A stretch of 40,595 bases of DNA from a virus (taxonomy: Duplodnaviria > Heunggongvirae > Uroviricota > Caudoviricetes): the IMG/VR virus record IMGVR_UViG_2541047967_000005, positions 1 through 40,595 of that record; one strand, written 5' to 3'. Under the pieces are notes generated by a model. The model was given only the letters and a program-made list of their open reading frames with translations, had not been told where the DNA came from and ran no database searches. The stretch's first letter is position 1. Each line of letters begins with the position of its first letter. The position numbers were made by a program, and so were the translations under genes. Below, piece after piece: positions 10,157-34,227 of the stretch.

Positions 10157-13100
10157 TTACTTCATCACCGGATCCACCTGGTTTATTAGTGGCGCAATCC
10201 AGAACAGGTTATTGCCGGGTATCAGGGTTCGGACATTATGCACAATACGATCACCGGCATCACCATTCAACACTCCTGAGGTCACATCAATGATGCTATC
10301 CGCAAGACCAAATGACGGTCCGAATAGAGATCCTACGAATCCACGACTGGCATACCTGGACTGTGTGCCAGTGCCAAATAAAGCCCCCAGCCCAACAGCA
10401 CCACCAGTCGCCTTTTCAGCCATGTTGTTATATTCCATCAATGGCCCAAGAATACCGGATCTATCTATACCCTCAAGCACCAGCTTCTCTGGTGACCAGT
10501 CAACATTTTTCCCTTTCGATGCTTCTTTAAGCGCATAGACCAGTGAGCCAAGAGCAATCTGAAATGCAGTGCCATAATAAAATTGCGCAGTTCCTTCCTG
10601 TAACCCACCAAGTAGCGCACGGTTGTATGAAGCCGTTGTGAATGATTTAAACTGAAATATCGTTCGCCCCATTGGAGTACTCGCCCATAAAGGTGTGTCA
10701 CCAATACCGGGGGTGATGATAGTGTTATTAACGTCTTTCAGAACCGCTGACTGGAATACTCCGGCAACGTACTGATCGTCCCATTTATCAAAGTTACCAA
10801 TGTGCCATCCATCAATTACCTCACCATGTTTCTCGAACTCACTGCGAATACGCGCAGCCATATTGTCGTTGATACCGAGTTTTGCCAGGCGGCGTGCAGG
10901 AAATGCACCGGACAAAATACCGTCTGAAATAACCATTCCGTTCATGGATTTGTTTATGTCATTAAAGCGATCCATGAGTGTCAGCTTGCCGAAGGCATCA
11001 GTAATTCGCTCCATTCCGGCTTCGACTGCTGTTGTCCTGGAAGAGCTGTCAACAAGATCACCAATTGCACGAGAGCGTGAATGCAGTACAGTTTCCAGTC
11101 CGATACCCATCTTCAACATCTCTTCTTTGCTGGCCTTAAATGCCGGTGATTGGGATATCTGAGAAGCATAGCCTTTCATGGTGTTACGGAAACCATTAAC
11201 CATAACCCCTCTGGCCAGATCTGGAATAGCTGATACTGTCATTCCACCGAGTTTGGTCGTGAAGTTCACATCCCGCAGAAAAGCGCCAGCACGAACAAAA
11301 AACGAAGACGGATCATCAGGCATCCCATATGTACCAACAAGACGATCGCGTAATGCTGTTATGTCTCTGAGATCATTTGCTCTTGATTTTGAAAGTCTGG
11401 ACTGTTCTTTCCGTAATTCCTTTTCGTACTTTCGCATTAATGAATCGAGTTTACCCTGAGGAACAACTTCACCATTGCTCTCATAACGTGCTTTCAGATT
11501 TGCCACACTTTCGTCATATTTCGCCTTTATTTTTTCAGGCACTTCCCGTAACAGACTGTCATATTCGTCCTCAATTAATTGCAGACGCTCAGTCATAGTT
11601 CGTTTGCCAAATGTTCTCGTCAACTCAATTTCTGCTGCCGCTTCACGGATATGACGTTGCAGCACGTAATTCACATCACTTTCAAGATAATCCCTGATAA
11701 GACTATCAGGAACATTTAATGTTCTTTCTTTCGTACTACCTGCGGCTTTTACAGAAAATACGCTGACAAAATCCTGTGGAACCTTAGCACCAGTAATTTT
11801 ATTAATTACGATATCTGCTGCAATTTCAGCATCCTCAGGAACCAGTGTTTTATTTCCTCTCGACCACCAGTCAACCAAAATACGTCGAAATTTATCGCGT
11901 TCACTGATTATTTTTCCAACTTTATATATGCGTGGGAAATAGCTTGCCTGGCCTAATGCTTTCAGTTCTTCATCTGGCGGCAATAAACCAAGCTTTTGCA
12001 TTTCAACTTTCACCCGATTTAATACAGTTCGCATCGCCTGCGCCGTTTCCTGAACAACAGGATTAGCATGCACATCACCGCTTCGCATAGCATTCCCAAC
12101 CTGCTGACGAAATGAATCAAAACTCATGTCACCACCATCAGCTTTATACTTTGCGTATGCCTGTTTATTTCCGACAACAACAGCAGCTTCTTCACGCTGC
12201 CATCCACGTGTACGGGTTTCTACAGCTACCGGTGTTTCAATCCCCCTTTCATTTCCTTTAAGGGTGAAATTATTTTCGGCTAACTCCAGCGTTGTTTTTC
12301 GCACCGTCTTGGACGGAGACTCCATTAACCTTGTCAAAGGAGTAAGATAGCTCCCTGCTTTCCATGCAGCCTTTCCACCCCACCCACCGGAAACAGGGGT
12401 TAAATCATCCAGAGTCGCTGTATCAATTTTCATAGCACCAACACTACCACCATCGGAAAGCGAAGCGGCAGCCCTGTCAGTCGCTGATGTAATGCTCATA
12501 TTATCAAGAGCATCAGCAACCTCACGTGTGGCTGCAGCCCGGACGGATGGCGAAAGCGCAACACCAGCACTGGCAAACACGCCGCTCATCATCGCACCCG
12601 CTGCAACGTGAGCGGCACTTTCACCCCATGAGCGTGTTATTTGCTGATTATTCAGTACAACCTCGCTTAATGCTGTACCGGCAGCACCAATCGCAATCTG
12701 TGAGCCAATACGCGCCAGTGCCCCTCCTTGAGCACCTGGGATAAACATTGACGCAACAGTAACCGGGTCAAAAAGCATCGCTGTTGCACTGGCAATTCCA
12801 CCAGCTAAGCCTGCTTCAGAGATAAAACGCCGATCTTCATTTTCATCATCTATCTGCTGCTTAATCCACGCCGTTTCCTCTGGCGATCGGGAATCTGCAA
12901 ATTTCGCCCCCCAGTATTCATAACCGTGCAACTCATTTTTATCAGCATATGGGTTATAACCCTCGACCGGTTCAAACTGTCTGGCAGGACGGAAAAAACC
13001 AGCCAGAATATTGTTCTGTCGTATTGCTGCGGCAAGCAATGAAGGCTCTTTGGGACGAGGTTCAGGGTTCTTACCTTCTGGCGGATGCACATCAAAACTC

Positions 13101-13180
13101 TGTTCATCAGGTTCAGGAATGGCGAGACCAGCAGAAATAAATCCGTTATTGTTTGATTCAGATACAGGATAGAACGGCAT
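10157..13180 (-). CDS. Large internal virion / DNA-ejection protein (1007 aa)
   Basis: Last and largest of three consecutive internal-protein genes of a podovirus-type structural operon; RBS gaggat upstream. Confidence 0.55.
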   Translation of the reverse strand: MPFYPVSESNNNGFISAGLAIPEPDEQSFDVHPPEGKNPEPRPKEPSLLAAAIRQNNILAGFFRPARQFEPVEGYNPYADKNELHGYEYWGAKFADSRSPEETAWIKQQIDDENEDRRFISEAGLAGGIASATAMLFDPVTVASMFIPGAQGGALARIGSQIAIGAAGTALSEVVLNNQQITRSWGESAAHVAAGAMMSGVFASAGVALSPSVRAAATREVADALDNMSITSATDRAAASLSDGGSVGAMKIDTATLDDLTPVSGGWGGKAAWKAGSYLTPLTRLMESPSKTVRKTTLELAENNFTLKGNERGIETPVAVETRTRGWQREEAAVVVGNKQAYAKYKADGGDMSFDSFRQQVGNAMRSGDVHANPVVQETAQAMRTVLNRVKVEMQKLGLLPPDEELKALGQASYFPRIYKVGKIISERDKFRRILVDWWSRGNKTLVPEDAEIAADIVINKITGAKVPQDFVSVFSVKAAGSTKERTLNVPDSLIRDYLESDVNYVLQRHIREAAAEIELTRTFGKRTMTERLQLIEDEYDSLLREVPEKIKAKYDESVANLKARYESNGEVVPQGKLDSLMRKYEKELRKEQSRLSKSRANDLRDITALRDRLVGTYGMPDDPSSFFVRAGAFLRDVNFTTKLGGMTVSAIPDLARGVMVNGFRNTMKGYASQISQSPAFKASKEEMLKMGIGLETVLHSRSRAIGDLVDSSSRTTAVEAGMERITDAFGKLTLMDRFNDINKSMNGMVISDGILSGAFPARRLAKLGINDNMAARIRSEFEKHGEVIDGWHIGNFDKWDDQYVAGVFQSAVLKDVNNTIITPGIGDTPLWASTPMGRTIFQFKSFTTASYNRALLGGLQEGTAQFYYGTAFQIALGSLVYALKEASKGKNVDWSPEKLVLEGIDRSGILGPLMEYNNMAEKATGGAVGLGALFGTGTQSRYASRGFVGSLFGPSFGLADSIIDVTSGVLNGDAGDRIVHNVRTLIPGNNLFWIAPLINQVDPVMK

Positions 13181-13191
13181 TATTTAGATCC

Positions 13192-15888
13192 TCACGAAAA
13201 GTAATCTTTAAATTTGTCCATACGTTCGTTATGCAGGCGCTGATACTGCTCATCCAGAGCGCGATGCTTGTCTTTGAAGTTTCGTATAGCCTGTCCACGC
13301 ATAATTTCTTCCTGCTCGTGCTGCTCCCGTTCCTGCTGCATTTTCTTATAAGGTTCCCAATCTTCTAGTGATGGCCCCCAGCGCATCTGTCTTCCATGCT
13401 TGTCATAAAATAAATCATCCCTCGTAATACCATTTTTATCTTTTGTTCTGATCACAACTGAATAAAGCTTATCTCTCGGAGTTGATAAGTCAGGAACGAG
13501 AATCAACTCACCTCCAACCAGTGAGCGTGGCTTATTCAGTCCCAATGCACCAGCCTCAGTTGAAGGTCGGTTAAATGAAGGAGCCGGTTTATGTAAGTCA
13601 TCGCCATACATGATTTTTTCTTTTTCAGCCTTCCATTGCGCTGCAATCCAGCCTGACGGCCCATATTGATAAAGCGCCTCCGGTGCATATTTCATAAACT
13701 GTGCTTCCCCGTTGACCTCGCTGATACTCCAGGTGCGGGCTATCTGCTGGTTGGTCATTTGCTTCGCTACGTCAGCGTTACCACCAGCAAGGCGATAGTT
13801 AACGTCATACAGCATCTGATAGTCATTGCGAAAGAGCGCTGCTTCCGGCGTCTGGTCATCCGCAGACGGATCCCAGCGAAGCCAATGAGCCATATTGCTG
13901 ACAGCAGAATTGGCTGCGCTGTCACGCTCTTTTTTGTATTCTCTTGTACTCTGAACAGATGAGAGCTGCGCCCTTAGTGCATCTGTCTGGTTGTATGTCT
14001 TACTCTGCGCTTCCACAATAGCAGCATCAGAAGACATCCCTGCATCAGTTAGTTGCTTAACAGTCAGATAAAAACCCTGCATATCCTTCGGCATATTTCC
14101 AATAGATGCATTGTCTGTTTCATATAACCGACTAAACAGTTCCGCCGCATTTTTAACCACTTCCTGATTGCTGGATCGGGATACTGCTGAAAGCTGCGTG
14201 ATGACCTGCGAAGGCATTATGCCAGTCTGAGCCACAAGCCGAACAACCCCATCATGAGTGGAGGCATCATTAATACGAAAGTTCTGCGCCATTTCTGTGT
14301 AATCAGCAGCTTTCTGCATTGACTTGTTGCTTGGGTCTAATTTTTCACCTATTGTCAGCGCCTCATTGAATCTGCGTGAATCCCGTTGCGCCTGAATTGC
14401 TTCATTTGATCTCTGAAGCAATGCAGACAATTTTCCGTAAGCATCGAGTTTTAACGCATAGTGAGGATCGTTAACCTCAGGCTTCACTTTCTGCATTTCT
14501 TCTTGCTGCTGAGAAGGAGGCAAATACTGAATTGCCTGGAATATTCTCGCGTTATCAATCGCTATATCCAGTTGATTGATTATTTTATCTGCGTTTTTTC
14601 CATACCCCCTGATGATGGTCTCCTGAGCCGGTATATAATCTGGAACCTCACCGTTATATAGCTGGGCCATGGTGTTATTAATAGCTGGCTCAAGCTGTTC
14701 TAATATTAACTTCCTTTGCTTTTCTATCTGACTATTAGCAAGGTTATCTATTTGATAAATAGTCAGCGGATCCATTCCAGTTTTATTTTTTCTATATCGG
14801 GAAAGCCACCCTTGTGTTTCTGATGGAAGATTTCGGATAAATTCTTCTTCTGATATTTCACCTTTACGTGGATCACCGACTTTGGCGATCAGTTTATCCA
14901 CGTTACCCATCCCCCAGTTATATGCTGCTCCGGTCAATATTTCGGAACCGTACTTACCATACAGTTGATTTACATAGTCACTGGCGAGCATTTCATGCTG
15001 TTGTTCGTCCGTAGGGTTGTATTCAACGCCACGTTTGGCCGCCAGTTCTTTCCCTGTGCCCGGCATTAACTGGTATTTCCCCTGGGCCCTCTCTCCAGAA
15101 GATGTTTTCGGTCCTTCAAGAATACTACCATCAGGATTAAAATGACGATCACCTGATTCAACAAGGCGTATGGCACGCATGTCCATGCCTCCAGAATCAT
15201 TTTTCTGAAACTGACCATTTAACCATCCTTCCGGATTAGCAGCGGCATAATTCTTCGCCCGCATTTCTGTGGCACTGCGATCATCACTTTCTATTTCTTC
15301 CAGAATGCGTTCTTGTGACCATCCCCTGGCTGCTCCATATCTGGCAATGGCTACCATTCTGGAATTTCTGGCTAAAGTGGCAGTTTGCGGGTCATTCCAG
15401 GCATCCGCTTCATTTTGTATCCATAATTTTCTCGTTGCCTGATATTGCTCATCTTCATAGGCATTTGTCTGCCCTATCTCATGTCTGAGAACTCCAGTAC
15501 TGAACTGAATTTTCTGTGTTCTGGCTTGTTGCAAAAACATATTTCTTGCTGCTTCATCAGTCAATGAAGCAGCTATTTCTTCCACATCCTGATCAAATCC
15601 AGATATGTACTCTTGCCCCTTACCAATCGCATTTTTGCCTTGTTGTGCATAAAAACCGGTTTGAGGGTTATAAAGACGTTCATTGCTGCGCTGATTAAGC
15701 TGAAGGATGGCATCCTGAGACAATGCAACATTCGCTTTCTGCCTGGCTTCACCATATGCCACCGCATACTGATCTGCGACATTCGCCAGCACCTGACCTG
15801 CTTGAGGAACATCGAAGGTTTGAAAACCACCGGTTTGCACACCACGACTTTGCACCTGGCGTCCGGATGTAGTAGGAACAACAGGCAT
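13192..15888 (-). CDS. Internal virion protein with lytic transglycosylase (SLT) domain (898 aa)
   Basis: SLT motifs in residues ~225-330: catalytic-type VESG, GKYQLMPGTGKELA, AYNWGMGNV. Confidence 0.7.
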   Translation of the reverse strand: MPVVPTTSGRQVQSRGVQTGGFQTFDVPQAGQVLANVADQYAVAYGEARQKANVALSQDAILQLNQRSNERLYNPQTGFYAQQGKNAIGKGQEYISGFDQDVEEIAASLTDEAARNMFLQQARTQKIQFSTGVLRHEIGQTNAYEDEQYQATRKLWIQNEADAWNDPQTATLARNSRMVAIARYGAARGWSQERILEEIESDDRSATEMRAKNYAAANPEGWLNGQFQKNDSGGMDMRAIRLVESGDRHFNPDGSILEGPKTSSGERAQGKYQLMPGTGKELAAKRGVEYNPTDEQQHEMLASDYVNQLYGKYGSEILTGAAYNWGMGNVDKLIAKVGDPRKGEISEEEFIRNLPSETQGWLSRYRKNKTGMDPLTIYQIDNLANSQIEKQRKLILEQLEPAINNTMAQLYNGEVPDYIPAQETIIRGYGKNADKIINQLDIAIDNARIFQAIQYLPPSQQQEEMQKVKPEVNDPHYALKLDAYGKLSALLQRSNEAIQAQRDSRRFNEALTIGEKLDPSNKSMQKAADYTEMAQNFRINDASTHDGVVRLVAQTGIMPSQVITQLSAVSRSSNQEVVKNAAELFSRLYETDNASIGNMPKDMQGFYLTVKQLTDAGMSSDAAIVEAQSKTYNQTDALRAQLSSVQSTREYKKERDSAANSAVSNMAHWLRWDPSADDQTPEAALFRNDYQMLYDVNYRLAGGNADVAKQMTNQQIARTWSISEVNGEAQFMKYAPEALYQYGPSGWIAAQWKAEKEKIMYGDDLHKPAPSFNRPSTEAGALGLNKPRSLVGGELILVPDLSTPRDKLYSVVIRTKDKNGITRDDLFYDKHGRQMRWGPSLEDWEPYKKMQQEREQHEQEEIMRGQAIRNFKDKHRALDEQYQRLHNERMDKFKDYFS

Positions 15889-16454
15889 CAGTAACCTCCT
15901 ATTTTGAATCGGGAGTCAGAATTCATAAAACCTGAGTTAGATAACATTGGCGTGTTTCCTTGCTTACTAATCGGATTGATACTTCCGCTACCCAACTTAT
16001 ATGCACCGTATGCTTTTAGTGGTGCCGTTAACAAAGTGCTGGTCATCGATGATTTAGCAGCCGACTGAGCAGCAGCCCCCTGTGCCTGAGCATTCATTCC
16101 CTGAACCTGATACCCATATGCCTCACGCTGAGCATTATTCACTGTCGTTAACGCATCAAGAGTGCCGAACTGAGCATTATCCGCAAAAACGTCAAGAGCT
16201 GTTCCGCTACTTAATTCCGCACCGGTAGCCCCCATAGTGGCCGCCGCAGTGCCTGAGCGTTGACGCATTTCACGACGACGCTGATCCGCTTCAATATTCC
16301 CACGATTGATTGAATCCTGTGCCTGAGCTTCAGCAATTTCAGCATTCCGATCAGCTATGGCTGACTGGTATTTTGCCTGCTTGCTCTGGCTGTACATTGA
16401 CGCGGCTGTGGATGCCACTGTGACGGCAACCAAAGCGATGGCTGGGTTACACAT
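15888..16454 (-). CDS. Internal virion protein (188 aa)
   Basis: Ala/Gln-rich protein between the tubular-protein genes and the large internal proteins; 1-nt overlap with the upstream gene. Confidence 0.45.
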   Translation of the reverse strand: MCNPAIALVAVTVASTAASMYSQSKQAKYQSAIADRNAEIAEAQAQDSINRGNIEADQRRREMRQRSGTAAATMGATGAELSSGTALDVFADNAQFGTLDALTTVNNAQREAYGYQVQGMNAQAQGAAAQSAAKSSMTSTLLTAPLKAYGAYKLGSGSINPISKQGNTPMLSNSGFMNSDSRFKIGGY

Positions 16455-16918
16455 TATTTTCTCTCCATGTGAAATCTGTGGAAATTAAGACCAAGAGCAC
16501 CATAAGGCGCGGCTTCTTCAAGCCTGAATCCAAGCCAGTGCAGCCATGCTTTGGCAACATGGTTTCGCTCGTCGACATAGTTTTCCAGGCGCGGATAAAC
16601 TGCCAGCATCTGCTGCAATACAGGGCGGCAGTGGCGAAGAAATGTCTTCTGATATTTTTCGATGCGGCTGGTTCCGACCAGCCAGGGCGTACCATTGCCA
16701 CCGATCATTGACGCCGGAGATACGCCAAACATGGTTACCAGTTCTCCGTTCGCAAATCCTGACCAGGCCATAGTCGCAGTACGCAGACCAACACGCAGCG
16801 CATCTTCGGTAGTCATCAGTGATACCGCATACAGTTCGTCAATATCAGCCTGACGAACATCCGGCAAAATCATCTGAAGATGCTCTTCGGTAGCGGGAAT
16901 AATTTGAACATCGATCAT
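16454..16918 (-). CDS. Virion structural protein, unknown role (154 aa)
   Basis: In-operon ORF with tight coupling to neighbours. Confidence 0.4.
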   Translation of the reverse strand: MIDVQIIPATEEHLQMILPDVRQADIDELYAVSLMTTEDALRVGLRTATMAWSGFANGELVTMFGVSPASMIGGNGTPWLVGTSRIEKYQKTFLRHCRPVLQQMLAVYPRLENYVDERNHVAKAWLHWLGFRLEEAAPYGALGLNFHRFHMERK

Positions 16919-20712: not shown

Positions 20713-20713
20713 C

Positions 20714-24874: not shown

Positions 24875-24888
24875 TTCAATGACTCCGG

Positions 24889-25522: not shown

Positions 25523-25599
25523 GTGGCATTAGCTCAGTTGGACAGAGCAACCGCCTTCTAAGCGGTTGGTCGCAGGTTCGAATCCTGCATGCCACGCCA
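25523..25599 (+). tRNA. tRNA-Arg (anticodon UCU), argU-like
   Basis: 77 nt folded by hand: 7-bp acceptor stem gtggcat/atgccac, D stem gctc/gagc, anticodon stem accgc/gcggt with loop cttctaa (TCT), T arm gcagg-ttcgaat-cctgc, 3' GCCA. Confidence 0.85.
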
Positions 25600-25797: not shown

Positions 25798-26220
25798 ATG
25801 AAAACAGCCGACATGCTAGCTAAATATCTAAATGAATGGCCGTGCAAATATGTACGCATTGTTCAGGGTGATGACTCAATTTTTTATGGTGTTTTTGCAG
25901 GAAATGAAATGCTTTGTGAAGCAATTCCAGGTGAGCGACTTGCCGGGTTAACGCTTAGCGATGACCATGGAATAGGAGTTACTTGCCATGACTGGATTTC
26001 AGCGCAGAAAACTGAAATGGAAAAAGGCAATGTGTTTGATATTTCTCGCGCTGTATACGCCAAAGAAAAAAGTGATGATGATTACATGCGCGAAAACTTA
26101 TACAACATGAAGTTACAATGCCTGGCTGAAGTGCTTAGTAAAAGATCTTTACTTGATGTGGTTGGTGCTGAGCAGGACGCCAAGGCAATCAACGCCGCAT
26201 TCGATAAAATAACCTTCTAA
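25798..26220 (+). CDS. Moron protein of unknown function (140 aa), encoded opposite to the structural operon
   Basis: RBS aaggtgag; sits between terL and the portal region on the opposite strand, next to the tRNA-Arg; own downstream terminator. Confidence 0.55.
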   Translation: MKTADMLAKYLNEWPCKYVRIVQGDDSIFYGVFAGNEMLCEAIPGERLAGLTLSDDHGIGVTCHDWISAQKTEMEKGNVFDISRAVYAKEKSDDDYMRENLYNMKLQCLAEVLSKRSLLDVVGAEQDAKAINAAFDKITF

Positions 26221-26240: not shown

Positions 26241-26265
26241 AGCCCGCCGATTCGCGGGCTTTTTT
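26241..26265 (+). terminator. Rho-independent terminator of the moron gene
   Basis: agcccgc cgattc gcgggct followed by ttttt; overlaps the terL stop codon. Confidence 0.6.
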
Positions 26266-27739
26266 ATGCAAAAGGATCATAGTCTGTGATGGCTTTGCCT
26301 TGCTGGTTCTGCTGCCCAGGAATTCGCAGACGCTTCGACACAGGGAAAGCAAACGTCAGCAGTAGCGCATCGCCTTTACCCGGCGAACGCCCAAGCCGCT
26401 CCTTGATATCTTCCTTCGGTTCGATAACGATTTTACCGTCCACACGAACTTTGTACTCTGCTGCCGACAGGTCGTCCGCTGTTTCCTGGTCATCCAGCAT
26501 GCCGCCGAGCCTCAGCCATGTCTTGCATGAGTTGAACATCTCCCCACGCTTGTTGAGCATCTGCGGGTCAGTAGACGCGCCACCGAACGGAACAAGTTGC
26601 CATGTACGACCCCAGCCGTCACCGATTGACTTCAAACCGGTTCCGTAACCGAAGTCGATGAACACCGCGTCAGCCTGATACTGGTCTTCAAAGTCAGCGA
26701 TACGCTTCGCCATAATCAGATCGTCGGTAGTCTTGTTGCCAGTCCACAGCACCTTACTGTGTAGCCCCTGCCGCAGGTATATCACAGCGTCATCAACGCC
26801 GGAGTATGCCGGGTCAACGCCGATTATCACCGGAGCATGTGCAACCTGCGCAGCGGTTACCACCCGTTTCATTGCCTCGTCAGTAAGACCGGTAGGGATA
26901 AACTGCAATTCAGATGCATCAGGGAATATGCCGCGCACACGGATTTTAACGAAGTCGCTATCTTCCCCGTAGTCATCAACCCATTTCTGCAACTGCTGTT
27001 TGTTAGTGCCTTCCACCGTCCGGCTGTCAATCTGCGCAGTTTTCCAGCGGTGTTTATATTTGCGGAAACATTCGCGGAAACGCCCGGTGTTACGTGTAGG
27101 GTTTCCGAACGCTACCCAGATAATCTCAGTGTCTTCGTCCGTAAGCGCACCCTCAGCAACTTCCCACACCAGATCCGCAATGTTCGACGCTTCATCGAAT
27201 ACCACGATGATGCGTTTGCGCTCGTTGTGTAGTCCGGCGAACGCCTCAGTGTTGTGCTCAGACCAGGGGATTGCGTCAGCTCGCCACCGCTTGTCGTGCC
27301 CAGGGTCATTGCTGTACATCGCGGTAGCGGTACAGGTAAACCAGTCTTTCGTGATAGCAAGGTTTGACCACTTGATAATTTCCGGCCAGGTCTTCGTTCG
27401 TAGCTGGTTGTCGGTGTTGGCGGTCACCACGACCTTACAATCCTCGCAAGTGGACATGCCCCAGTTGATCAGCATTGAGATGAATGCGGATTTACCAATA
27501 CCGTGACCAGAAGCACGTGCCAGCATAAGCGGCTGATATCGCGTCTCTGGATTCTGCAGGTGATCACGTATCTCTCGGAACGCATCAGCCTGCCACTGAC
27601 GTGGGCCGGTGGCATGTGCCAGTTCAGTCCCCTCTTCCCCCCATGGGAACGCATAGAGGGCATAGCCAAGCGGATCGTGAGTGAACCCTGCAATATCCTC
27701 GATTAACTGCTCTTCAGGAGATAACGCTGTATCTGTCAC
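26264..27739 (-). CDS. Terminase large subunit
   Basis: 491 aa; Walker A-like GHGIGKS in the N-terminal ATPase region and acidic nuclease-region motifs; GTG start overlapping the terS stop (GTGA). Confidence 0.75.
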   Translation of the reverse strand: MTDTALSPEEQLIEDIAGFTHDPLGYALYAFPWGEEGTELAHATGPRQWQADAFREIRDHLQNPETRYQPLMLARASGHGIGKSAFISMLINWGMSTCEDCKVVVTANTDNQLRTKTWPEIIKWSNLAITKDWFTCTATAMYSNDPGHDKRWRADAIPWSEHNTEAFAGLHNERKRIIVVFDEASNIADLVWEVAEGALTDEDTEIIWVAFGNPTRNTGRFRECFRKYKHRWKTAQIDSRTVEGTNKQQLQKWVDDYGEDSDFVKIRVRGIFPDASELQFIPTGLTDEAMKRVVTAAQVAHAPVIIGVDPAYSGVDDAVIYLRQGLHSKVLWTGNKTTDDLIMAKRIADFEDQYQADAVFIDFGYGTGLKSIGDGWGRTWQLVPFGGASTDPQMLNKRGEMFNSCKTWLRLGGMLDDQETADDLSAAEYKVRVDGKIVIEPKEDIKERLGRSPGKGDALLLTFAFPVSKRLRIPGQQNQQGKAITDYDPFA

Positions 27740-28335
27740 TGATTGCCATCCTGACGTTCTTTCAGTCTCTTCCTGGCTGCCGCTATGCGATCAGCAATTG
27801 TCACATTCACATTAACATCCAGGCGTTCTTTGAATGCGTTGACGTCGACGTGCTTACCAATCAGTTCGAGGTTCTTCACCTTGTCAGGCCATTTAATTTT
27901 TTTGAGGATGCCAACCAGCTCTTTCTCGTCTCCACGGCCTTCGAACATGTCGGCCAGTTCGAAACCTGTCAGGTACTGCCGCCAGACCTTAGGCCATTCC
28001 GAGACCGGCTTGATGCTCATATCGTCGTTGAGAATGTCAATCACGTCCATCTGGTCGATCTCCACCAGGCGCATGAGAACGTAATCAGCACTGACGCGCA
28101 TTCGTTTGTTGCGCTCCTCCATCAACTCGGCAATCCGTTTTTGAATGCGTTCATCGCGCATCATGACACTGGCTTTAACTGCCGCTGTATTTGGGGAGAA
28201 TCCTGCGTTAATCGCTGCCTGAGTCTGGTTTTCAGGCGTTTTGATGTATGACTGGCAATAAGCCTCCTGCATTGCTGTTAGTGGCTTAAATTGCGTTGAT
28301 TTGCGTTTATAGGTTTTAGGTTCAGCAGGCATCAT
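27736..28335 (-). CDS. Terminase small subunit
   Basis: Internal ATG (MMPAEPKTYKRK...) chosen because a terminator lies upstream inside the longer track ORF; basic DNA-binding N-terminus, helical C-terminus; coupled to terL. Confidence 0.6.
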   Translation of the reverse strand: MMPAEPKTYKRKSTQFKPLTAMQEAYCQSYIKTPENQTQAAINAGFSPNTAAVKASVMMRDERIQKRIAELMEERNKRMRVSADYVLMRLVEIDQMDVIDILNDDMSIKPVSEWPKVWRQYLTGFELADMFEGRGDEKELVGILKKIKWPDKVKNLELIGKHVDVNAFKERLDVNVNVTIADRIAAARKRLKERQDGNQ

Positions 28336-28376
28336 AACCACCGTGGTAATAGTTACCGTTGTGGTAATAGTACCAT

Positions 28377-28404
28377 GCAAAATAAAGCCGCCATAGTTGG
28401 CGGC
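28377..28404 (-). terminator. Rho-independent terminator between the Cys-rich gene and terS
   Basis: Minus strand: gccgcc aactat ggcggc followed by tttatttt. Confidence 0.6.
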
Positions 28405-28445
28405 AGTATTCAAAACCCATCAAATTCATCATGCATAACCCACTC

Positions 28446-28457
28446 GTGACATGTCAC
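28446..28457. repeat. 12-bp palindrome GTGACATGTCAC (copy 3 of 3)
   Basis: Exact palindrome overlapping the stop codon of the 28454-28795 gene, about 40 nt upstream of the terminator preceding terS. Confidence 0.7.
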
Positions 28458-28795
28458 AATATTAATTTCGTTTCATGCCAGCCTTTAGTCACCCAGCATT
28501 GCGAGTCACCATTACACGGGCATGAATTCACAGGAACTCTCTCGCCGCACTTACCGCAACGTTTTCTGCTGATCGATTTTATACGCCCGTGCACGCGCGC
28601 ATCATCCTGGCGGATCAGTAACGCTATATACTCACCAAATTCGTAAGGCGCACGCCCGGGGCGACGTGTGGCACAGTTACGCTCCAGCATTTCAATTTCC
28701 TGAGCATCAAGCACAATTTCCAGCTTACGCACACCGGATTCAGCTTGTCTGGCTCTCTGAGCGGCTTTGCGCTCTGCTGCTGATTTAGCCATCAA
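28454..28795 (-). CDS. Cys-rich 113-aa protein of unknown function (possible late-gene regulator)
   Basis: C-terminal cluster CGKCGERVPVNSCPCNGDSQC; immediately upstream of the late operon. Confidence 0.35.
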   Translation of the reverse strand: MMAKSAAERKAAQRARQAESGVRKLEIVLDAQEIEMLERNCATRRPGRAPYEFGEYIALLIRQDDARVHGRIKSISRKRCGKCGERVPVNSCPCNGDSQCWVTKGWHETKLIL

Positions 28796-29066
28796 TATTC
28801 ACCTTTATCGCGAACACCTTTACCGGTTTATCGCCGAAGTGGGGATGTGTGATTGTCTTTATTTCATATCCGTCATACGGAACATCAATTCTGCGGCTGG
28901 AATCGTCGCGCTTCGGATATCCCTTTGTGATAATCAGGCGGTCATACTTACGGTTAACGAGGCGCTTATTCCAATAGTCATTACACAGGCGATACTCTTC
29001 CGTTTTCTCTCCGCGAATCATGGCATCGAAGTATTCACCTTTGACGGCAAGTTGAAGGTTAGCCAC
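28785..29066 (-). CDS. ASCH-domain protein
   Basis: GEKTEEYR fits the ASCH GxKxxExR motif; GTG start with strong RBS aggagg. Confidence 0.5.
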   Translation of the reverse strand: MANLQLAVKGEYFDAMIRGEKTEEYRLCNDYWNKRLVNRKYDRLIITKGYPKRDDSSRRIDVPYDGYEIKTITHPHFGDKPVKVFAIKVNIDG

Positions 29067-29946
29067 GGTTAACCTCCTGCGGCGGTTCTGGTAGCGGCAT
29101 CCAGTACAAGGCGTTCCCTAACCACGATAAAGTGCCGTCGCTCAACTCCACGTATTCCCCTTGTACCTGTCCTGCCATATACTCGCCGTGCTTTGAATAA
29201 ATTAAAATCCAATCATCTTGAGCGGGCATTTGCTCACTACAGCTTATCCAACCATCCGGAGTTACCGGATAGTTGCGCATTGCGACCTTTAATGCCTCAT
29301 AGAAGCAACCTTTCAGATTGTTGAACTGACGCCCATTTAGCGGGACGTGTTCAGTCAGCATGTTGTGTAATTTCCATGCCGCGTCGTTTACTTCGTTGGA
29401 TGACAGGGGAGGCAACTTGTAAGTTTGGCTTACAGGTTCGGCACCATGAAGCATGGCGTCGCTCCGCTCTATGCCATCCAGCGCGATTCGCAGTGCCTGA
29501 ATTGTGGTAATGCTATCGTTTGGGGCTATTCCATATCGCTCGAATACAGCGATATGACCGCGCATAATCTCAGGCGTAAGCTCTTTGTAAGCATAAGCAA
29601 GCGACCCTGATGCATCATCCGGCACAACCGACGCAGGCGCGGCAGCATAAACAGGAATAACGTCCGCTTGCTCTTTATTGCTTTCATCCGTTAAAGCCCA
29701 GAATAATTTCCCGGCCGGATGTTTGAAAATATAAGCAACTGGTTCTGCTTCCAGCGATGCCAGCACGATACGCGCCAGCTCACGCACAACTTCCGGCGGC
29801 GCGTAACGGTCATTCAGGTCATCCCACAGGCGTAGCATGTTATCGCTACCAGGGTGAACATCCTCGTTAGTTCCGGCCAGCGCACTAATAACCTCATCGG
29901 CTGCTTCAATAATTTTCTGTGCCTGTTCTCTGGTAATAGTGGTCAT
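29059..29946 (-). CDS. DUF551-domain phage protein
   Basis: C-terminal WMPLPEPP hallmark of DUF551. Confidence 0.55.
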   Translation of the reverse strand: MTTITREQAQKIIEAADEVISALAGTNEDVHPGSDNMLRLWDDLNDRYAPPEVVRELARIVLASLEAEPVAYIFKHPAGKLFWALTDESNKEQADVIPVYAAAPASVVPDDASGSLAYAYKELTPEIMRGHIAVFERYGIAPNDSITTIQALRIALDGIERSDAMLHGAEPVSQTYKLPPLSSNEVNDAAWKLHNMLTEHVPLNGRQFNNLKGCFYEALKVAMRNYPVTPDGWISCSEQMPAQDDWILIYSKHGEYMAGQVQGEYVELSDGTLSWLGNALYWMPLPEPPQEVNRG

Positions 29947-29956
29947 TTGTTATGCC

Positions 29957-30154
29957 TCAATACACGAAATCTGTTTTAAATTCATGGTTACATTCTGGAC
30001 AGCATGTTTCGTAACCTTTTATTTCTTCACATGCCTGTTTAGCTCCAGAAAACTCCCAGAAATCAGCATCACAAAGCAGATCGAAATTGTGACCGCATTT
30101 TGGGCATTCGGTATCAAGTGACAGATTCCAGTAAGCAGTGGTGTTTTTATCCAT
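29957..30154 (-). CDS. Small zinc-ribbon protein (65 aa)
   Basis: Internal ATG with strong RBS aaggagag; CPKCGH ... CCPECNH; coupled to the upstream gene stop. Confidence 0.5.
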   Translation of the reverse strand: MDKNTTAYWNLSLDTECPKCGHNFDLLCDADFWEFSGAKQACEEIKGYETCCPECNHEFKTDFVY

Positions 30155-30155
30155 A

Positions 30156-30785
30156 TCACTCTCCTTTGATGCGAATGCCAGCGGCGCGCTCGGCTTTACT
30201 TTGTTCCCAAAACCACTTGTGAAGCTCCATAAGCTTTTCGTCAATCGGTGCATATTTGCGATTAAAGTAGGCCTGAGCATCTTTCTCAGATTCGTCCGGC
30301 AATTCGCCTGGGCCAAACAGTGTGTTATAAATCCATGCCAGTCCGCTCTTAGCGTCGCCAGTTGCCTGCCATTCGATAATCGCAGCCTGCATGACCAGAA
30401 TGTTTTTCCCGATTAACAGGTCCAGTTCTTTGTACCGGTTGCGGATGTATGCATTCTCGCTTTGTAATTTTGCGTTGCGCTTCTCTGCGGCTTCCAGCTC
30501 AACACGCAGCTTCCCTACCGTTAGCGCAATATCCTCGTTCTCCTGGTCACGGCGTTTGATGTATTGCTGGTTTCTTTCCAGTTCATCCAGTAATGCCAAA
30601 GCAACCTTTGGATTAAAGGCAGCAATAAATTCAGCGTTGTTTTTCAGAACGTGTTGCGCAATGGCCTGACCACTTAGTCGGACCTTATAACCACGTGCGC
30701 CACGGTGTGGTTTATATGAGTCCCAGTCTCCCCACGTTGCTTTTTCTGCCTTTTCACGCAGTGCCTGATAGTTAATCTCGCTCAC
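30156..30785 (-). CDS. Ead/Ea22-like coiled-coil protein
   Basis: N-terminus MSEINYQALREKAEKATWGDW and central coiled coil typical of lambdoid Ead/Ea22-like proteins. Confidence 0.45.
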   Translation of the reverse strand: MSEINYQALREKAEKATWGDWDSYKPHRGARGYKVRLSGQAIAQHVLKNNAEFIAAFNPKVALALLDELERNQQYIKRRDQENEDIALTVGKLRVELEAAEKRNAKLQSENAYIRNRYKELDLLIGKNILVMQAAIIEWQATGDAKSGLAWIYNTLFGPGELPDESEKDAQAYFNRKYAPIDEKLMELHKWFWEQSKAERAAGIRIKGE

Positions 30786-31006
30786 TCTTCATCCTCCAAG
30801 TCGGCAACGGCGTCCATCACATCAGAACCGCGAATAACCTCAAAAGCACGGCAGGCCATTTGAAATACCAGTTGCTCTTGCGGGTGAGGAGACTCCCAAT
30901 ATTTGAAGCCTGGGCGATGCGTGTACCCCATCATTGAATAAAAATCACCAGCAAGCTTAATCGCGGCATCGACAAGCTCTCTGTTAGTCATTCTTTTTCC
31001 GCTCAC
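30782..31006 (-). CDS. Hypothetical early-region protein (74 aa)
   Basis: ORF coupled to neighbours in the nin-like region. Confidence 0.4.
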   Translation of the reverse strand: MSGKRMTNRELVDAAIKLAGDFYSMMGYTHRPGFKYWESPHPQEQLVFQMACRAFEVIRGSDVMDAVADLEDEE

Positions 31007-31509
31007 TGGTTGCCTCCTTTGCGAAGCTGGGCGGCTAACTCATCACATATGTGCGTCAAACAACAAAGTTTGATTGCTGGATGTTCGCGCATCATCTCTA
31101 CCCCCTGCGCCCGCACTTCAGACAGGAAAGCATCGGTAGCTGGAGTTTCGCTGTGGTGTAGGGCATCGTTGATAATCATTGCAGCAACACCAGCCTGCCC
31201 TGCATCCGTGACCGACACATGCTCAAGAGTTACGGCCATTGCGTGTTTCAGTCCGGCATTCTCCACTGCCAGCGCCGAAAACTTCTCGTGTGCCAACTTA
31301 ACAGCTGCATCAGCCTGCTTAATTGACTCAATCGCTTTCTGTTGGTCTTCGGCCAGCGCATTAGCACGCACCAGTTGCACTTCCAGTTGCGTTGCCAAAT
31401 CGCTGATCAGCTTTGCCACACTACGCATATCAACGGCACCACATTCTGCTTTCAGTTCCGAAGCCATCTCATGCCCGGCGGCAACTAACCCTTTGATATT
31501 ACTTTCCAT
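31003..31509 (-). CDS. Hypothetical early-region protein (168 aa)
   Basis: ORF with ATG start verified in frame; Ala-rich helical protein. Confidence 0.45.
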   Translation of the reverse strand: MESNIKGLVAAGHEMASELKAECGAVDMRSVAKLISDLATQLEVQLVRANALAEDQQKAIESIKQADAAVKLAHEKFSALAVENAGLKHAMAVTLEHVSVTDAGQAGVAAMIINDALHHSETPATDAFLSEVRAQGVEMMREHPAIKLCCLTHICDELAAQLRKGGNQ

Positions 31510-31570
31510 CTTTACCCTCGCTTATCCACATAACTTATTGATTACATTGATAACTAAAAAGATCGTCGAT

Positions 31571-31915
31571 TCAGAACTTTTCGATGTTCCAGCCACCACC
31601 TGCTTTCTTTGGTTTAACCGTTACCCCGATGATTCGGAACGGATACTGATCTGCGGCGACTTTGGTTTTCACCCTGGCGTCGTCGGTCCAGAAACCTTTC
31701 ACTTCGTGCAGTTCCATCTCGCCGGTGGCGAGCATCACAGCAAAATCGGGCGTATAGAACGTGTTGTCAGCTAACCGCAGCTTGATACCCTCAAATCGAT
31801 ACCAGACGATTTCTCCTGCACGTTTACGCAGCTCAAGGTGCTGGCAATACGCAGATTCTGTTTTGTTCATCTGACCTGTTTTGAGTCGACCAAGAGCCTG
31901 TATCTGTTTTCTCAT
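31571..31915 (-). CDS. DUF1064-family protein (putative PD-(D/E)XK-type nuclease)
   Basis: Pattern QHLELRKRAGEI ... YTPDF ... EVKG ... YP matches DUF1064 phage proteins; RBS ggagg upstream. Confidence 0.5.
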   Translation of the reverse strand: MRKQIQALGRLKTGQMNKTESAYCQHLELRKRAGEIVWYRFEGIKLRLADNTFYTPDFAVMLATGEMELHEVKGFWTDDARVKTKVAADQYPFRIIGVTVKPKKAGGGWNIEKF

Positions 31916-32032: not shown

Positions 32033-32818
32033 TTACTTGATAAATCCTGCCGCCTTTCCCCGCCTGTATTCCTCCATCAGCCACTGCGCCGGTGTTATTC
32101 CCCCAAGGGTGGCGGCGTTAGGCATGCACCCGAAACTTCGCCCTGGTGGATGGTAAACGTCTCTCCCTGTGTCCGGAGGCGTACTCATGGGCTCTGGCTT
32201 TGCCTGTATGCTGATCACCGGATCGGGTATCTGCTGTCCTGAAGCCACCTTTTTCGCCCAATCATCGAGCAGCCTGCGTGCGTGTTTCTCAACCTCAATC
32301 TCGCTAAGCTGGCGCTGATACATTGCACGGCGGGTATCACATACGACCCAGTACATAACCGGATGTCGCCACGGGAATCTTTCGGGACCACCAGGATATA
32401 AACTTTTTTCCTTGCTGTACCGGTGAAACTCCGCCATCACATCGTCAATGGTGACGCCAAGAACCATCTTGCTGTCTTTGCACCACTTGATAAATTGCCC
32501 TGGAGACGGCCAGAACGGAGATTCACTGGCGCGGGCGTGGCGCATACCAGCAGAAACCTGTTCACGGGTTCGGATCCCCCCTTCGGCAAACGCAGCAATC
32601 CACTGCTGTTTTGCAGCAACTTCCTGCTCTGGCGTCTTCAGGTTGGTTACCACTGCCGCCGGAAACAGTTGTTTCAGCTGTTTAAAAAGGGCATCAACAA
32701 GCCTCTCTGCTGACATGTTCACCACATTGTCATTGTTGACGTACTGATGCTCATAACCTGACATGCGAGAAAGGGCTTCTCCGTCACGGTTTTGTATCGC
32801 GGTAAAAACGTTGTTCAC
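32033..32818 (-). CDS. Lambda P-like replication protein (helicase loader)
   Basis: Strong similarity by eye to lambda P (QQWIAAFAEGGIRTREQVSAGMRHARASESPFWPSPGQFIKWCKD vs lambda RRQWVLAFRENGITTMEQVNAGMRVARRQNRPFLPSPGQFVAWCRE); GTG start with RBS gggagga, overlapping the O-like stop. Confidence 0.8.
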   Translation of the reverse strand: MNNVFTAIQNRDGEALSRMSGYEHQYVNNDNVVNMSAERLVDALFKQLKQLFPAAVVTNLKTPEQEVAAKQQWIAAFAEGGIRTREQVSAGMRHARASESPFWPSPGQFIKWCKDSKMVLGVTIDDVMAEFHRYSKEKSLYPGGPERFPWRHPVMYWVVCDTRRAMYQRQLSEIEVEKHARRLLDDWAKKVASGQQIPDPVISIQAKPEPMSTPPDTGRDVYHPPGRSFGCMPNAATLGGITPAQWLMEEYRRGKAAGFIK

Positions 32819-33630
32819 AAGAAATCCTCCCATGCTTCAGGGCTGTTCCAGTGCGGAACGTTGTTATCAGGTAATGTTGATTGCTTCTGTCTGCTAATCT
32901 GCAGCCGCCTTGCCAGCTTCTGCTCCCACTGTGCCTGATGGTATGCCTTACCCTCAGCCATCCAGTAAATTCTGAACTCTGCAAGTTCCTGTGCCGTTGG
33001 CAGACTGTCCAGGTAGATCCCCTGCAATGAGCTTTTCCGAAGAAAGTCATCTGATGGCTGCCATTGTTCATGCATGACAAATTTGCCTAATTGCCCTGGC
33101 CCACCAGGAGGAACAAAGTTATTCATCACGGCGTTGTTTGCTCCGGGGTCATGAGGCACAGAATCCCCGCTTTTTGTCCTGCTCTCCCTCTCTTGGTTAA
33201 ATGACTGGTTATATGACTGGTTCTGGATCCCGTTTTTGGGATCATTCAACATCCCGTTTTTGGGATCATTCAACATCCCGTTTTTGGGTATATTCCCGTT
33301 TTCGGGTATATTCCCGTTTTCGGGTTCATTGCCCCCCTCCCGGTTGCCTTTAATGTTCCCGTTTTTGGTTATATTAAGAGAGAAAACCCGCACTCTTTTT
33401 GTCGCTCCCTTTCTCTCTCCGGTATCTGAAATAATCCCCATTTTCATGAGCGATATAAGCCCGGCCTGCACGGTTTTTTTATTCAGGCAAGTGTCTTTAA
33501 CGAGGCGTTCTATGCTGGGGTAGCAGAGGTTATATTCATCGGCTCTGTCAGCCATCGAGAGCAGTATGAGCTTTAATGATGAGCTACCTGGATCTGTCTC
33601 CCAAGCCCAATCTGTTGCATGTCTGCTCAT
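32815..33630 (-). CDS. Replication initiator (lambda O-like arrangement) with internal iterons
   Basis: N-terminal winged-helix-like domain; repeated peptide GNIPENGNIPKNGMLNDPKNGMLNDPKNG encoded by the iteron array; RBS ggag; directly upstream of and coupled to the P-like gene. Confidence 0.65.
   Translation of the reverse strand: MSRHATDWAWETDPGSSSLKLILLSMADRADEYNLCYPSIERLVKDTCLNKKTVQAGLISLMKMGIISDTGERKGATKRVRVFSLNITKNGNIKGNREGGNEPENGNIPENGNIPKNGMLNDPKNGMLNDPKNGIQNQSYNQSFNQERESRTKSGDSVPHDPGANNAVMNNFVPPGGPGQLGKFVMHEQWQPSDDFLRKSSLQGIYLDSLPTAQELAEFRIYWMAEGKAYHQAQWEQKLARRLQISRQKQSTLPDNNVPHWNSPEAWEDFL
33227..33375. repeat. Iteron array (candidate origin of replication) inside the initiator gene
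   Basis: Six or more direct repeats with core CCCGTTTT(T/C)GG at 18-24-bp spacing; positions verified against the overlapping plus-strand track ORF. Confidence 0.7.
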
Positions 33631-33951: not shown

Positions 33952-33974
33952 GAAAAGACCGCCGGATGGCGGTC
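33952..33974 (-). terminator. Rho-independent terminator after the Cro-like gene
   Basis: Minus strand: gaccgcc atcc ggcggtc followed by tttt. Confidence 0.5.
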
Positions 33975-33996
33975 TACAGAGGGTTGTTGCCAGATA

Positions 33997-34227
33997 TCAT
34001 GAGTAGAAGAAGTATGCCAGTTCCGCTTTTGAGCGCAGCCATTGTCTTGTTTTACAGGCTTTAAAAAGCCCATTCATCAATACCTTACCTGGCATTTTGC
34101 GCTTACCTGTTAAGTGAGTCTGGATATAGTGACTCGTCGTTCCGGCTTCCTGTGCGAAGGCTTCACGCTCATCCGGAGTAAGTGCAAGCCAGTGCTTTTT
34201 GAAATCGAAATGTCCGTTATCGCTCAT
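33997..34227 (-). CDS. Cro-like / YdaS-like HTH DNA-binding protein
   Basis: 76 aa with HTH-like segment (FAQEAGTTSHYIQTHL); divergent from the repressor-like gene and first gene of the leftward replication operon. Confidence 0.45.
   Translation of the reverse strand: MSDNGHFDFKKHWLALTPDEREAFAQEAGTTSHYIQTHLTGKRKMPGKVLMNGLFKACKTRQWLRSKAELAYFFYS

Follow-up and report, generated by a model that had tools for sequence, protein, structure and literature searches.

A temperate podovirus prophage assigned to Uetakevirus: its virion, replication and immunity genes compared with those of epsilon15, phiV10 and TL-2011b

The genus Uetakevirus comprises well-known short-tailed temperate phages of Escherichia coli and Salmonella. 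The virion of its type member, epsilon15, has been solved by cryo-electron microscopy and is short-tailed (PMC12391199), and the short tail of ZX5 has been seen by electron microscopy (PMC9782041). TL-2011b (NC_019445), a prophage of an O103:H25 enterohaemorrhagic E. coli outbreak strain, is classed in the same genus (PMC11522302), and for phiV10, epsilon15 and ZX5 integration at guaA through the attP core attgagtgggaatgatt has been published (PMC9782041). Here we analyse a stretch of 40,595 nucleotides, IMG/VR virus record IMGVR_UViG_2541047967_000005, which is referred to in its full length as the window. An initial annotation of positions 10157-34227, the finding region, had described a mosaic in which lambda-type replication, immunity and nin genes were joined to a T7-like or epsilon15-like podoviral morphogenesis module. 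We conclude with high confidence that the whole window represents an apparently intact temperate podovirus prophage of the epsilon15/phiV10/TL-2011b group of Uetakevirus. Its layout is already known and is ordinary for the genus.

This architecture has been public for years in the genome records of epsilon15 and phiV10, and close relatives are present in many E. coli genomes. The practical value of the analysis lies in its corrections, namely the true tailspike at 3160-5622, the ejection protein of 1007 amino acids (aa) and the immunity system based on SOS control and antirepressors. Two modest leads are added to these: 1) a swap of the distal internal-protein module within the genus and 2) a protein of 113 aa and a terminator ahead of terS.

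Genus placement and prophage ends

Among 50,697 phage records compared by megablast, TL-2011b is the top match to the finding region, with 96.9% identity over 79% of the query. PAS61, phiv142-3, O157 typing phages 9 and 10, ZX5 and phiV10 match at 97–98% over 48–65%, and epsilon15 at ~78% over 34%. At least 80% of the finding region is present, at ~97% identity, in 45 complete E. coli genomes, and the remainder of the window matches the same phages as the finding region. The genus guideline of the International Committee on Taxonomy of Viruses is about 70% genome-wide nucleotide similarity. On a crude measure of whole-prophage similarity, the blastn aligned fraction multiplied by identity, the window scores 73.4 with TL-2011b, 64.5 with phiV10, 33.0 with epsilon15, 1.5 with lambda and 0.4 with P22. 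ZX5 and epsilon15 align over 37% coverage at 82% identity, so accepted members of the genus differ to a similar extent (PMC9782041).

The structural gene set of the genus is present in its usual order, i.e., terS, terL, portal, gp7 capsid, gp10 staple, gp11 adaptor, gp12 nozzle, gp13, gp14 and a protein with an SLT domain, and these proteins are 89–100% identical to those of phiV10 and 36–95% identical to those of epsilon15. Integration at the 3' end of guaA with the core attgagtgggaatgatt, a criterion of the genus, is likewise found.

The window begins in host DNA with a yfgH-like lipoprotein gene (1-516) and yfgI/DUF5384 (532-1071), both on the plus strand and named after the counterparts annotated by the Prokaryotic Genome Annotation Pipeline (PGAP) in E. 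coli OkiPb01683; their products are 99% identical to the ends of the TL-2011b record. The left end of the prophage is marked by the 17-bp attL core AATCATTCCCACTCAAT at 1163-1179 (plus strand), a duplicated 3' end of guaA with a single exact match in the window where none would be expected. This core is the reverse complement of the attP sequence published for phiV10, epsilon15 and ZX5 (PMC9782041). In a related prophage a 16-bp direct repeat flanks the element at yfgI and guaA, and in the counterpart annotated by PGAP the same element lies between these two genes. At its other end the window closes with the start of the gene for a P4-type tyrosine integrase (39339-40595, minus strand; identified by Pfam, tblastn and the PGAP counterpart), which is 99% identical to that of phiV10. 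In relatives this point lies ~190 bp from attR and guaA, and in a related genome guaA stands next to int. Since each end of the prophage has been located, the entire phage gene set lies inside the window, and genes for a tail tube or a tape measure, whose presence outside it would have contradicted the initial annotation, cannot be hidden there.

The deposited TL-2011b record itself includes host flank at 41360-42430, where gp54 is yfgI and gp55 is yfgH; the latter is named a DNA methyltransferase in RefSeq, while its PGAP name is outer membrane lipoprotein.

The reference phages resemble the window in different parts. TL-2011b, the best overall match, has the same head, tail, lysis and int genes, the same tRNA-Arg and the same distal internal-protein genes, but differs in the replication initiator (46% identity over 31% of its length), the P protein (82% identical), the ea-type accessory genes, the receptor-binding part of the tailspike and the gp14-family protein, which is only 57% identical. 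It has a DUF1382 gene where the window has a phosphatase, and also carries O-acetyltransferase and Arc/Ant genes. phiV10 shares the immunity, replication and early-left proteins at 96–100% identity, the same att site, integrase and operator layout, and the products from terL through the gp13-like protein at 95–99% (terS 89%), whereas its tailspike body is different and it carries oac. epsilon15 has the same gene order and, in the same families, the portal, capsid gp7, staple gp10, adaptor gp11, nozzle gp12, gp13 and gp14. In contrast to the window, epsilon15 is without a lambda-P homologue and a tRNA-Arg, has another initiator context, a RuvC-type resolvase instead of the DUF1064 protein, and gp16 and gp17 instead of a T7-gp16-type protein; its own RecE-like/RecT-like pair is non-homologous, the RecE-like and RecT proteins of the window having no tblastn match there. 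The variable parts are the tailspike body, the ea-type genes and the region 5.6–10.2 kb. From the protein and nucleotide comparisons together, the element is best described as a recombinant among known Uetakevirus variants which has exchanged small patches with lambdoid phages.

Virion genes and the lysis cassette

All genes for virion proteins described in this section are on the minus strand. The late region starts with terS (27736-28335; Pfam Terminase_2), the small terminase subunit, and terL (26264-27739; PHROG 2), the large one; the two are 89–99% identical to those of phiV10, and the terminase start codon was set after comparison with the one annotated in epsilon15. The head genes (19994-25095) encode p68, the portal (23195-24874; Pfam Head-tail_con, E 3e-187, which we take to be the family of the T7 gp8 portal), Bbp19 (Pfam Bbp19; between the portal and the scaffold-like gene), a scaffold-like protein of 233 aa (22204-22905) which carries the PHROG label 'protease' and in which no catalytic domain was found, the major capsid protein (21203-22195; PF20911 GP7, E 1e-148; PDB 3j4u, 8cjz and 3j40, the last being epsilon15 gp7), the Bbp16 cement protein (20714-21151; Pfam Bbp16), p114 and the gp10 staple (19994-20323; Pfam Gp10-like). 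The capsid protein is nearer to that of Bordetella phage BPP-1 (3j4u, E 7e-128) than to epsilon15 gp7 (3j40, E 1e-84).

An adaptor or connector of 202 aa (19389-19997; PDB 8ck1_E 'Connector Protein', E 3.9e-26) and a tail nozzle of 823 aa (16918-19389; PDB 8ck1_A 'Tail Nozzle', E 5.8e-218) follow. Both are classed by PHROG as tail proteins and are 99% identical to those of phiV10. The matches to the two chains of 8CK1 indicate that the label 'tubular A/B-like' given to these genes in the initial annotation was right; a literature search found no paper mentioning 8CK1 or 8CJZ. The late region also holds four small open reading frames (ORFs) beside the main genes.

From terS to the adaptor and nozzle, the late gene order was read correctly in the initial annotation, as was the epsilon15-like character of the morphogenesis module, which includes T7-family parts. 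The segment that follows had been read as three internal proteins and a tailspike, and this does not hold. Four internal-protein genes were found, the last of which had been taken for the tailspike gene. They encode 1) a T7 gp13-family protein of 154 aa (16454-16918; PHROG 308, which also contains T7 gp13), 2) a T7 gp14-family protein of 188 aa (15888-16454; Pfam T7_gp14, E 1.9e-7, above the cut-off; PHROG 418), 3) an SLT lytic transglycosylase of 898 aa (13192-15888; Pfam SLT; PHROG 1044/992), which holds the position of T7 gp15 and epsilon15 gp15, and 4) a T7 gp16-family internal virion protein of 1007 aa (10157-13180; PHROG 342, E 1e-208). The 898-aa protein is 91% identical to TL-2011b gp37, and only its N-terminal 28% aligns with gp15 of phiV10 and epsilon15.

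Several lines of evidence bear on the 1007-aa protein, which is 95% identical to its TL-2011b counterpart. Residues 22-1006 align with positions 199-1226 of the PHROG 342 profile, and T7 gp16 itself belongs to PHROG 342 (1355 bits). Judged by this alignment, the absent N-terminal part corresponds to the lytic domain of gp16, and the lytic domain here is carried by the preceding 898-aa protein. An exhaustive HMMER search collected 4,569 representatives of 900–2,000 aa, and the profile of these relatives matches Gp29 of PDB 9vvp and the 'Internal virion protein' of 9sfn, both solved internal proteins of podoviruses. The AlphaFold2 model (predicted local distance difference test, pLDDT, 82; predicted template modelling score 0.76) is almost entirely alpha-helical. 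In a Foldseek search of BFVD the model has 65 significant matches; among those named for a function, internal virion protein (D) and core proteins from T7-like and phiKMV-like phages predominate, and none is a tailspike. A phmmer search of the PDB sequences returned nothing, and a Foldseek search of the model against the PDB returned nothing significant. Profile and predicted fold thus identify the 1007-aa product as an all-helical internal virion (ejection) protein. Single-sequence hhalign comparisons of the window proteins with T7 gp8 and gp10-16 and with epsilon15 gp15-17 had no power, since even the portal failed; only the SLT protein scored, against epsilon15 gp15.

The order adaptor, nozzle, gp13, gp14, large protein, very large protein is that of the T7 ejectosome genes gp11-gp16, and the gp13 (PHROG 308), gp14 (Pfam T7_gp14) and gp16 (PHROG 342 and fold) families are shared with T7. 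However, the T7 and window proteins have no BLAST-level similarity, and the adaptor and nozzle belong to PHROGs other than those of T7 gp11 and gp12. The window further differs from T7 in that the lytic transglycosylase domain sits on the protein at the gp15 position rather than on the gp16-type protein, that the terminase genes stand at the start of the late region, and that the element is temperate and has no phage RNA polymerase: no single-subunit RNA polymerase was found, the four window ORFs of at least 800 aa being the tailspike, the nozzle, the SLT protein and the gp16-type protein.

At 10157-16454, the genes for the distal internal proteins resemble those of TL-2011b (57–95%) and are without a counterpart in phiV10 and epsilon15, both of which carry gp16 and gp17 at that position; the segment 9.3–16.1 kb of the window has almost no counterpart in phiV10. 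Two alternative distal modules are seen in one genus when window positions 10157-16454 are compared with 11998-19335 of phiV10 and 11586-19329 of epsilon15: the epsilon15-type gp14, gp15, gp16 and gp17 versus a single T7-gp16-family protein which is preceded by a longer SLT protein and a diverged gp14. It is conceivable, though doubtful, that the genus thus contains two non-homologous ejection or tail-hub modules, in which case virions of the TL-2011b type would build a hub and channel unlike those of the epsilon15 cryo-electron microscopy model.

By homology with these systems, the terminase would package DNA into a capsid of the epsilon15/BPP-1 type through a portal of the T7-gp8 family. The adaptor and nozzle would form the short tail, to which six tailspikes that bind O-antigen are predicted to be attached. 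The gp13-, gp14-, SLT/gp15- and gp16-like proteins, whose homologies are direct observations, would be ejected to form a channel across the cell envelope; for this step we infer from the homologues. A probably short-tailed virion was already proposed in the initial annotation, and the podoviral gene set and the short tails of the relatives agree with it by analogy. The absence of a Q antiterminator and of a tape-measure gene noted there is also borne out, neither family being matched in any ORF scanned.

The initial annotation had considered Lederbergvirus as well as Uetakevirus references for comparison; the latter match, and the former are excluded. A P22-like podovirus prophage would also have a short-tailed gene set, a tailspike, antirepressor elements (a P22_AR_N domain) and Ead/Eae-like genes, all of which the window has. 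With hardly any chance of being correct, this reading fails on the virion itself: in tblastn, none of the structural proteins of the window matches P22, be it the coat, the portal, the ejection proteins or the tail needle, and the two share 0.4% similarity at the nucleotide level. The window has a T7-gp8-family portal and an epsilon15/BPP-1-family capsid, and T7-type internal proteins replace gp7, gp20 and gp16 of P22.

The true tailspike, of 820 aa, is encoded at 3160-5622, outside the finding region (PHROG tailspike families, E 1e-222). It consists of an N-terminal anchor, a beta-helix body (weak, sub-threshold Pfam Beta_helix) and a C-terminal Pfam Peptidase_S74 chaperone domain. As the tailspike, it is also the determinant of O-antigen specificity. 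Its N-terminal ~20% is 65–70% identical to epsilon15 gp20 and to the tailspikes of phiV10 and TL-2011b, and the receptor-binding part, residues 185-817, is ~56% identical to Kagunavirus tailspikes. Conservation of the anchor in the genus and tailspike exchange of this kind have already been published (PMC11522302). The O-antigen-modifying gene which lies beside the tailspike gene in phiV10, epsilon15 and TL-2011b is absent from the window.

The lysis cassette (1290-3087) comprises a putative holin (2683-3087), a holin (2388-2696), a GH19 endolysin (1769-2398; Pfam Glyco_hydro_19) and an Rz-like spanin (1290-1772; Pfam DUF2514), all on the minus strand, the two holin genes matching Pfam Phage_holin_8 and Phage_holin_3_7. 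The lysis proteins are 80–97% identical to those of phiV10 and epsilon15. The placement of lysis genes after the tailspike, as claimed in the initial annotation, is correct for the true tailspike, both lying outside the finding region.

Two elements form an opposite-strand island in the late region: a tRNA-Arg(TCT) at 25523-25599 (ARAGORN; Rfam tRNA, 73 bits) and an ORF of 140 aa at 25798-26220, both on the plus strand and, by a terminator scan, each followed by a terminator-like hairpin. The same tRNA-Arg is found in phiV10 and TL-2011b, where it is unannotated and overlapped by a coding sequence for a 'hypothetical protein'; it is absent from epsilon15.

Replication, recombination and accessory genes

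The replication genes are encoded on the minus strand. A helicase loader of the lambda-P family (266 aa; 32033-32833; Pfam PF06992, E 1.5e-56) shows 30% identity to lambda P in an alignment that covers 78% of its length. The adjacent initiator (271 aa; 32815-33630) combines an HTH_36 domain at the N terminus with a DnaT DNA-binding domain at the C terminus. Within its gene, at 33227-33380, lie iterons with the pattern (A/T)CCC(A/G)AAAACGGGA, of which five copies are clear and one is degenerate, spaced by 18–24 bp. The initiator does not match the O family, and tblastn gave nothing for it against lambda O and P22 gp18; by sequence comparison it is analogous, not homologous, to lambda O.

The lambda O-ori-P module resembles this arrangement in that the origin iterons lie within the initiator gene, which is followed by a P-family gene. 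Furthermore, the lambda iterons (ATCCCTCAAAACGAGGGA) and those of the window have in common the inverted ends TCCC...GGGA and an AAAACG core. The lambda module is different in that its initiator is O and its P is only 30% identical, while the window is without ren, nin and Q downstream. Since iterons resembling those of lambda are found within the initiator gene, we consider the initiator with internal iterons to be real and the replication logic to be lambda-like. The initiator would bind the iterons in its own gene and the lambda-P homologue would recruit host DnaB.

Recombination genes are also present, a RecE-like gene (DUF3799/PD-(D/E)XK nuclease; 35571-36392) and RecT (36362-37330), both identified by Pfam. 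They belong to the early-left operon and integration genes (35260-40595), which comprise p104, the RecE-like gene, RecT, AlpA/Xis-like, PerC, an MT-A70 methylase, a NinI-like phosphatase and the integrase. The phosphatase gene (38677-39336) adjoins int, and its product is 67% identical to lambda NinI. The P-like protein, the initiator with internal iterons and the RecE/RecT pair had all been recognised in the initial annotation, although the last, at 35571-37330, lies outside the finding region.

The nin-like genes of that annotation were not found. Between P and terS, at 28785-31915 on the minus strand, the window has 'ea-type' accessory genes, identified by Pfam and PHROG: ASCH, DUF551, a zinc-ribbon ORF, Ead/Ea22-like, p74 (74 aa), eae-like p168 and DUF1064. 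Domain scans and tblastn against lambda and P22 detected no NinB-NinH homologue in this interval, and the lone Nin relative is the phosphatase at 38677-39336. Hundreds of phages, Shiga toxin (Stx)-converting and other lambdoid ones, match the window only at ~28.8–31.4 kb, in patches of 92–96% DNA identity; the genes concerned (EaA, Ea22, DUF551, ASCH) belong to the early-left 'ea' region of those phages.

These observations bear on the central claim of the initial annotation, that a lambda-type early region has been joined to a podoviral module. Read in its strong form, the element would be a recent or unusual hybrid of a lambdoid, siphovirus-type early region with a podoviral late module, and a lambda-P-family protein, iterons in the initiator gene, a divergent cro/repressor pair, a phosphatase 67% identical to lambda NinI and the patches at 28.8–31.4 kb with 92–96% identity to Stx lambdoid phages would all fit such an origin. 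We nevertheless regard it as highly improbable. The cro-like protein, repressor, initiator, P, DUF1064 protein and 113-aa regulator are 94–100% identical to proteins of phiV10, and most early genes have counterparts in epsilon15, from which it follows that the combination is of long standing and characteristic of the genus. Lambda resembles the window only in P (30%), a part of Ea22 and the NinI-like phosphatase (67%), the similarity at the nucleotide level being 1.5%, and no homologues of lambda O, cI, cro, N, Q or NinB-H were found by domain scans and tblastn. The repressor/operator system is of the SPC32H/epsilon15 type, and the patches in common with lambdoid phages consist of accessory 'ea' genes only. 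The early region is thus normal for a Uetakevirus, and on sequence comparison the element is mosaic only in the sense common to all temperate enterobacterial phages. A siphovirus reading was also considered, and was rejected on protein comparison and nucleotide similarity.

Immunity and late-gene control

The immunity core (33956-35100) contains a cro-like gene, the repressor gene, their terminators, and the OR and OL operators. The divergent pair reported in the initial annotation consists of the cro-like gene (76 aa; 33997-34227, minus strand; PHROG 35; terminator at 33956-33975) and the repressor gene (194 aa; 34382-34966, plus strand; terminator at 34987-35006). The OR operators lie at 34264-34326 and the OL operators, with a promoter-like site, at 35024-35100. 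The repressor has a full-length match to PDB 5d50, the SPC32H Rep protein (E 4e-42); in the domain scan it has helix-turn-helix (HTH) domains only, and no S24 peptidase (autocleavage) domain. Immunity had been called lambda-type. It is instead of the SPC32H/epsilon15 type, with a repressor and antirepressor, dispersed operators and no cleavage domain.

The inverted repeat TTACC-N5-GGTAA occurs at 15 sites in the window, allowing at most one mismatch, compared with 0.58 expected. The sites are spread over ~8 intergenic regions ahead of almost every operon, the late ones included: between cro and the repressor gene (34264 and 34312), 3' of the repressor gene around the promoter-like site (35024 and 35086), 3' of the cro terminator (33927), between P and DUF1064 (31919 and 31981), immediately ahead of terS (28335-28349 and 28353-28367), ahead of the portal operon (25186), ahead of the tailspike (5727), ahead of both antirepressor operons (6108 and 9326) and at 7175. 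A site with one mismatch within the tailspike gene (5495) may have arisen by chance. Each of the seven 'repressor' sites curated in the epsilon15 GenBank record coincides with the motif, and the dispersed pattern, with 14–15 sites, is kept in phiV10, TL-2011b and epsilon15, compared with one site in lambda and none in the T7 late region. The half-sites of epsilon15 are the same as those of the window, yet its repressor is only 42% identical.

A perfect SOS-box-like palindrome, a LexA box with the consensus CTGTATAAATATACAG, lies at 5781-5796 (plus strand), 8 bp upstream of an ORF of 90 aa (5804-6076) which heads an antirepressor operon with a Bro-N gene downstream. An isrK-like RNA (6159-6235; Rfam RF01394, 67.7 bits) and a C4 antisense RNA (6260-6343; Rfam RF01695, 66 bits), both above the gathering score, precede the Bro-N antirepressor-like gene (6392-7102; Pfam Bro-N, E 1e-19), all three on the plus strand. 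A second, inverted copy on the minus strand has isrK at 9213-9289 and C4 at 9108-9194 (72.2 and 79.5 bits in Rfam) and another Bro-N antirepressor-like gene at about 8373-9059 (Pfam Bro-N). The isrK-like and C4 RNAs form the leaders of both Bro-N genes, a control of the P1/P7 immI type.

The SPC32H switch (PDB 5D50/5D4Z) is the closest described system: its repressor is homologous over the full length, with two HTH regions and no S24 peptidase, and antirepressor genes and a LexA box are present here as well. The window is unlike SPC32H in that its candidate antirepressors belong to the Bro-N type and are encoded twice, in inverted copies that are each preceded by isrK/C4 RNAs. The repressor/antirepressor design of SPC32H-type phages has been summarised (PMC7380047), and the near-identical repressor and antirepressor of ZX5 give experimental support for it (PMC9782041). 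While the sites and their order are read directly, the following course of events is modelled on SPC32H. In the lysogen, the two-HTH repressor would bind TTACC-N5-GGTAA at OR and OL, and also ahead of the post-replication genes, terS, the portal operon, the tailspike and the antirepressor operons. DNA damage would remove LexA from the box at 5781-5796, leading to expression of the Bro-N antirepressors; these, under the added control of the isrK/C4 RNAs, would inactivate the repressor, and all operons would be derepressed. Immunity of this kind, with SOS control, antirepressors and dispersed operators, is relevant to how readily such prophages are induced in E. coli of cattle and humans.

The accessory region around these genes is rearranged. 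An inverted duplication of ~1 kb (6097-7125 versus 8350-9351) flanks a cassette of 1.2 kb with a weak YafO-toxin-like ORF (7545-8057) and an ORF of 77 aa, and within it two segments of 518 nt (6608-7125 and 8350-8867) are 97% complementary as an inverted repeat. A fragment of 117 aa (9488-9841, plus strand) has a P22_AR_N domain only and is probably a truncated Ant. Next to it, an ORF of 98 aa (9842-10138, minus strand) encodes a glycine-rich hydrophobic stretch, possibly membrane-spanning, and has no counterpart in TL-2011b, phiV10 or epsilon15.

Three points weigh against an intact and fully assigned Uetakevirus prophage. In the phage collection no isolate covers the finding region beyond 79%, and on the crude similarity measure phiV10 scores only 64.5, so placement at the species level is tentative; the accessory region at 5.6–10.2 kb is rearranged, with its inverted Bro-N duplication and the Ant fragment that has P22_AR_N only, and inducibility is not guaranteed; and the binding of the repressor, the control by SOS and the place of the internal proteins in the virion are predicted by analogy with homologues. 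The rearranged immI-like region with its 518-nt inverted repeats, the truncated Ant fragment and the absence of the O-antigen-modifying gene could also mean that the element is a defective, cryptic Uetakevirus remnant which is not inducible and makes no particles. This is rather unlikely, in that all genes for structure, lysis, replication, recombination and integration can be aligned from end to end with homologues of isolated phages, no frameshifts were seen in the core genes, attL is intact, and the arrangement with two Bro-N genes recurs in a few other E. coli genomes. An apparently intact prophage therefore remains our preferred interpretation.

If the locus has anything new to offer, it is only in the 113-aa gene and the region between it and terS. 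The gene (28454-28795, minus strand) encodes a conserved Cys4 protein assigned to PHROG 536 'transcriptional regulator' (E 2e-54). Neither Pfam nor NCBIfam has a family for it, none of its 611 homologues bears a name, and the AlphaFold2 model (pLDDT 69) has no Foldseek match in the PDB; a search of nine other unlabelled window proteins also found nothing in NCBIfam. For the N and Q antiterminators, no Pfam or PHROG family was matched in any ORF scanned, and there was no tblastn match to N or Q of lambda or P22. It is conceivable, though doubtful, that Uetakeviruses lack any Q-type late switch and have their late operons gated directly by the prophage repressor at the dispersed operators, and that the 113-aa protein acts as a new kind of late activator or antiterminator. 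The protein may be either of these or something unrelated.

The late-operon control region itself (28335-28457, minus strand) contains, in this order, a perfect 12-bp palindrome GTGACATGTCAC (28446-28457), which overlaps the stop codon of the 113-aa gene and a promoter-like site, a strong terminator hairpin (28387-28404) just downstream of the palindrome, and the two operators that abut the terS start codon. The related loci found with the 113-aa gene are all 96–98% identical, a range that shows intergenic conservation and is of no use for covariation. The arrangement is kept in ~80 related loci and in epsilon15, whose annotation marks the corresponding site as one for the repressor.

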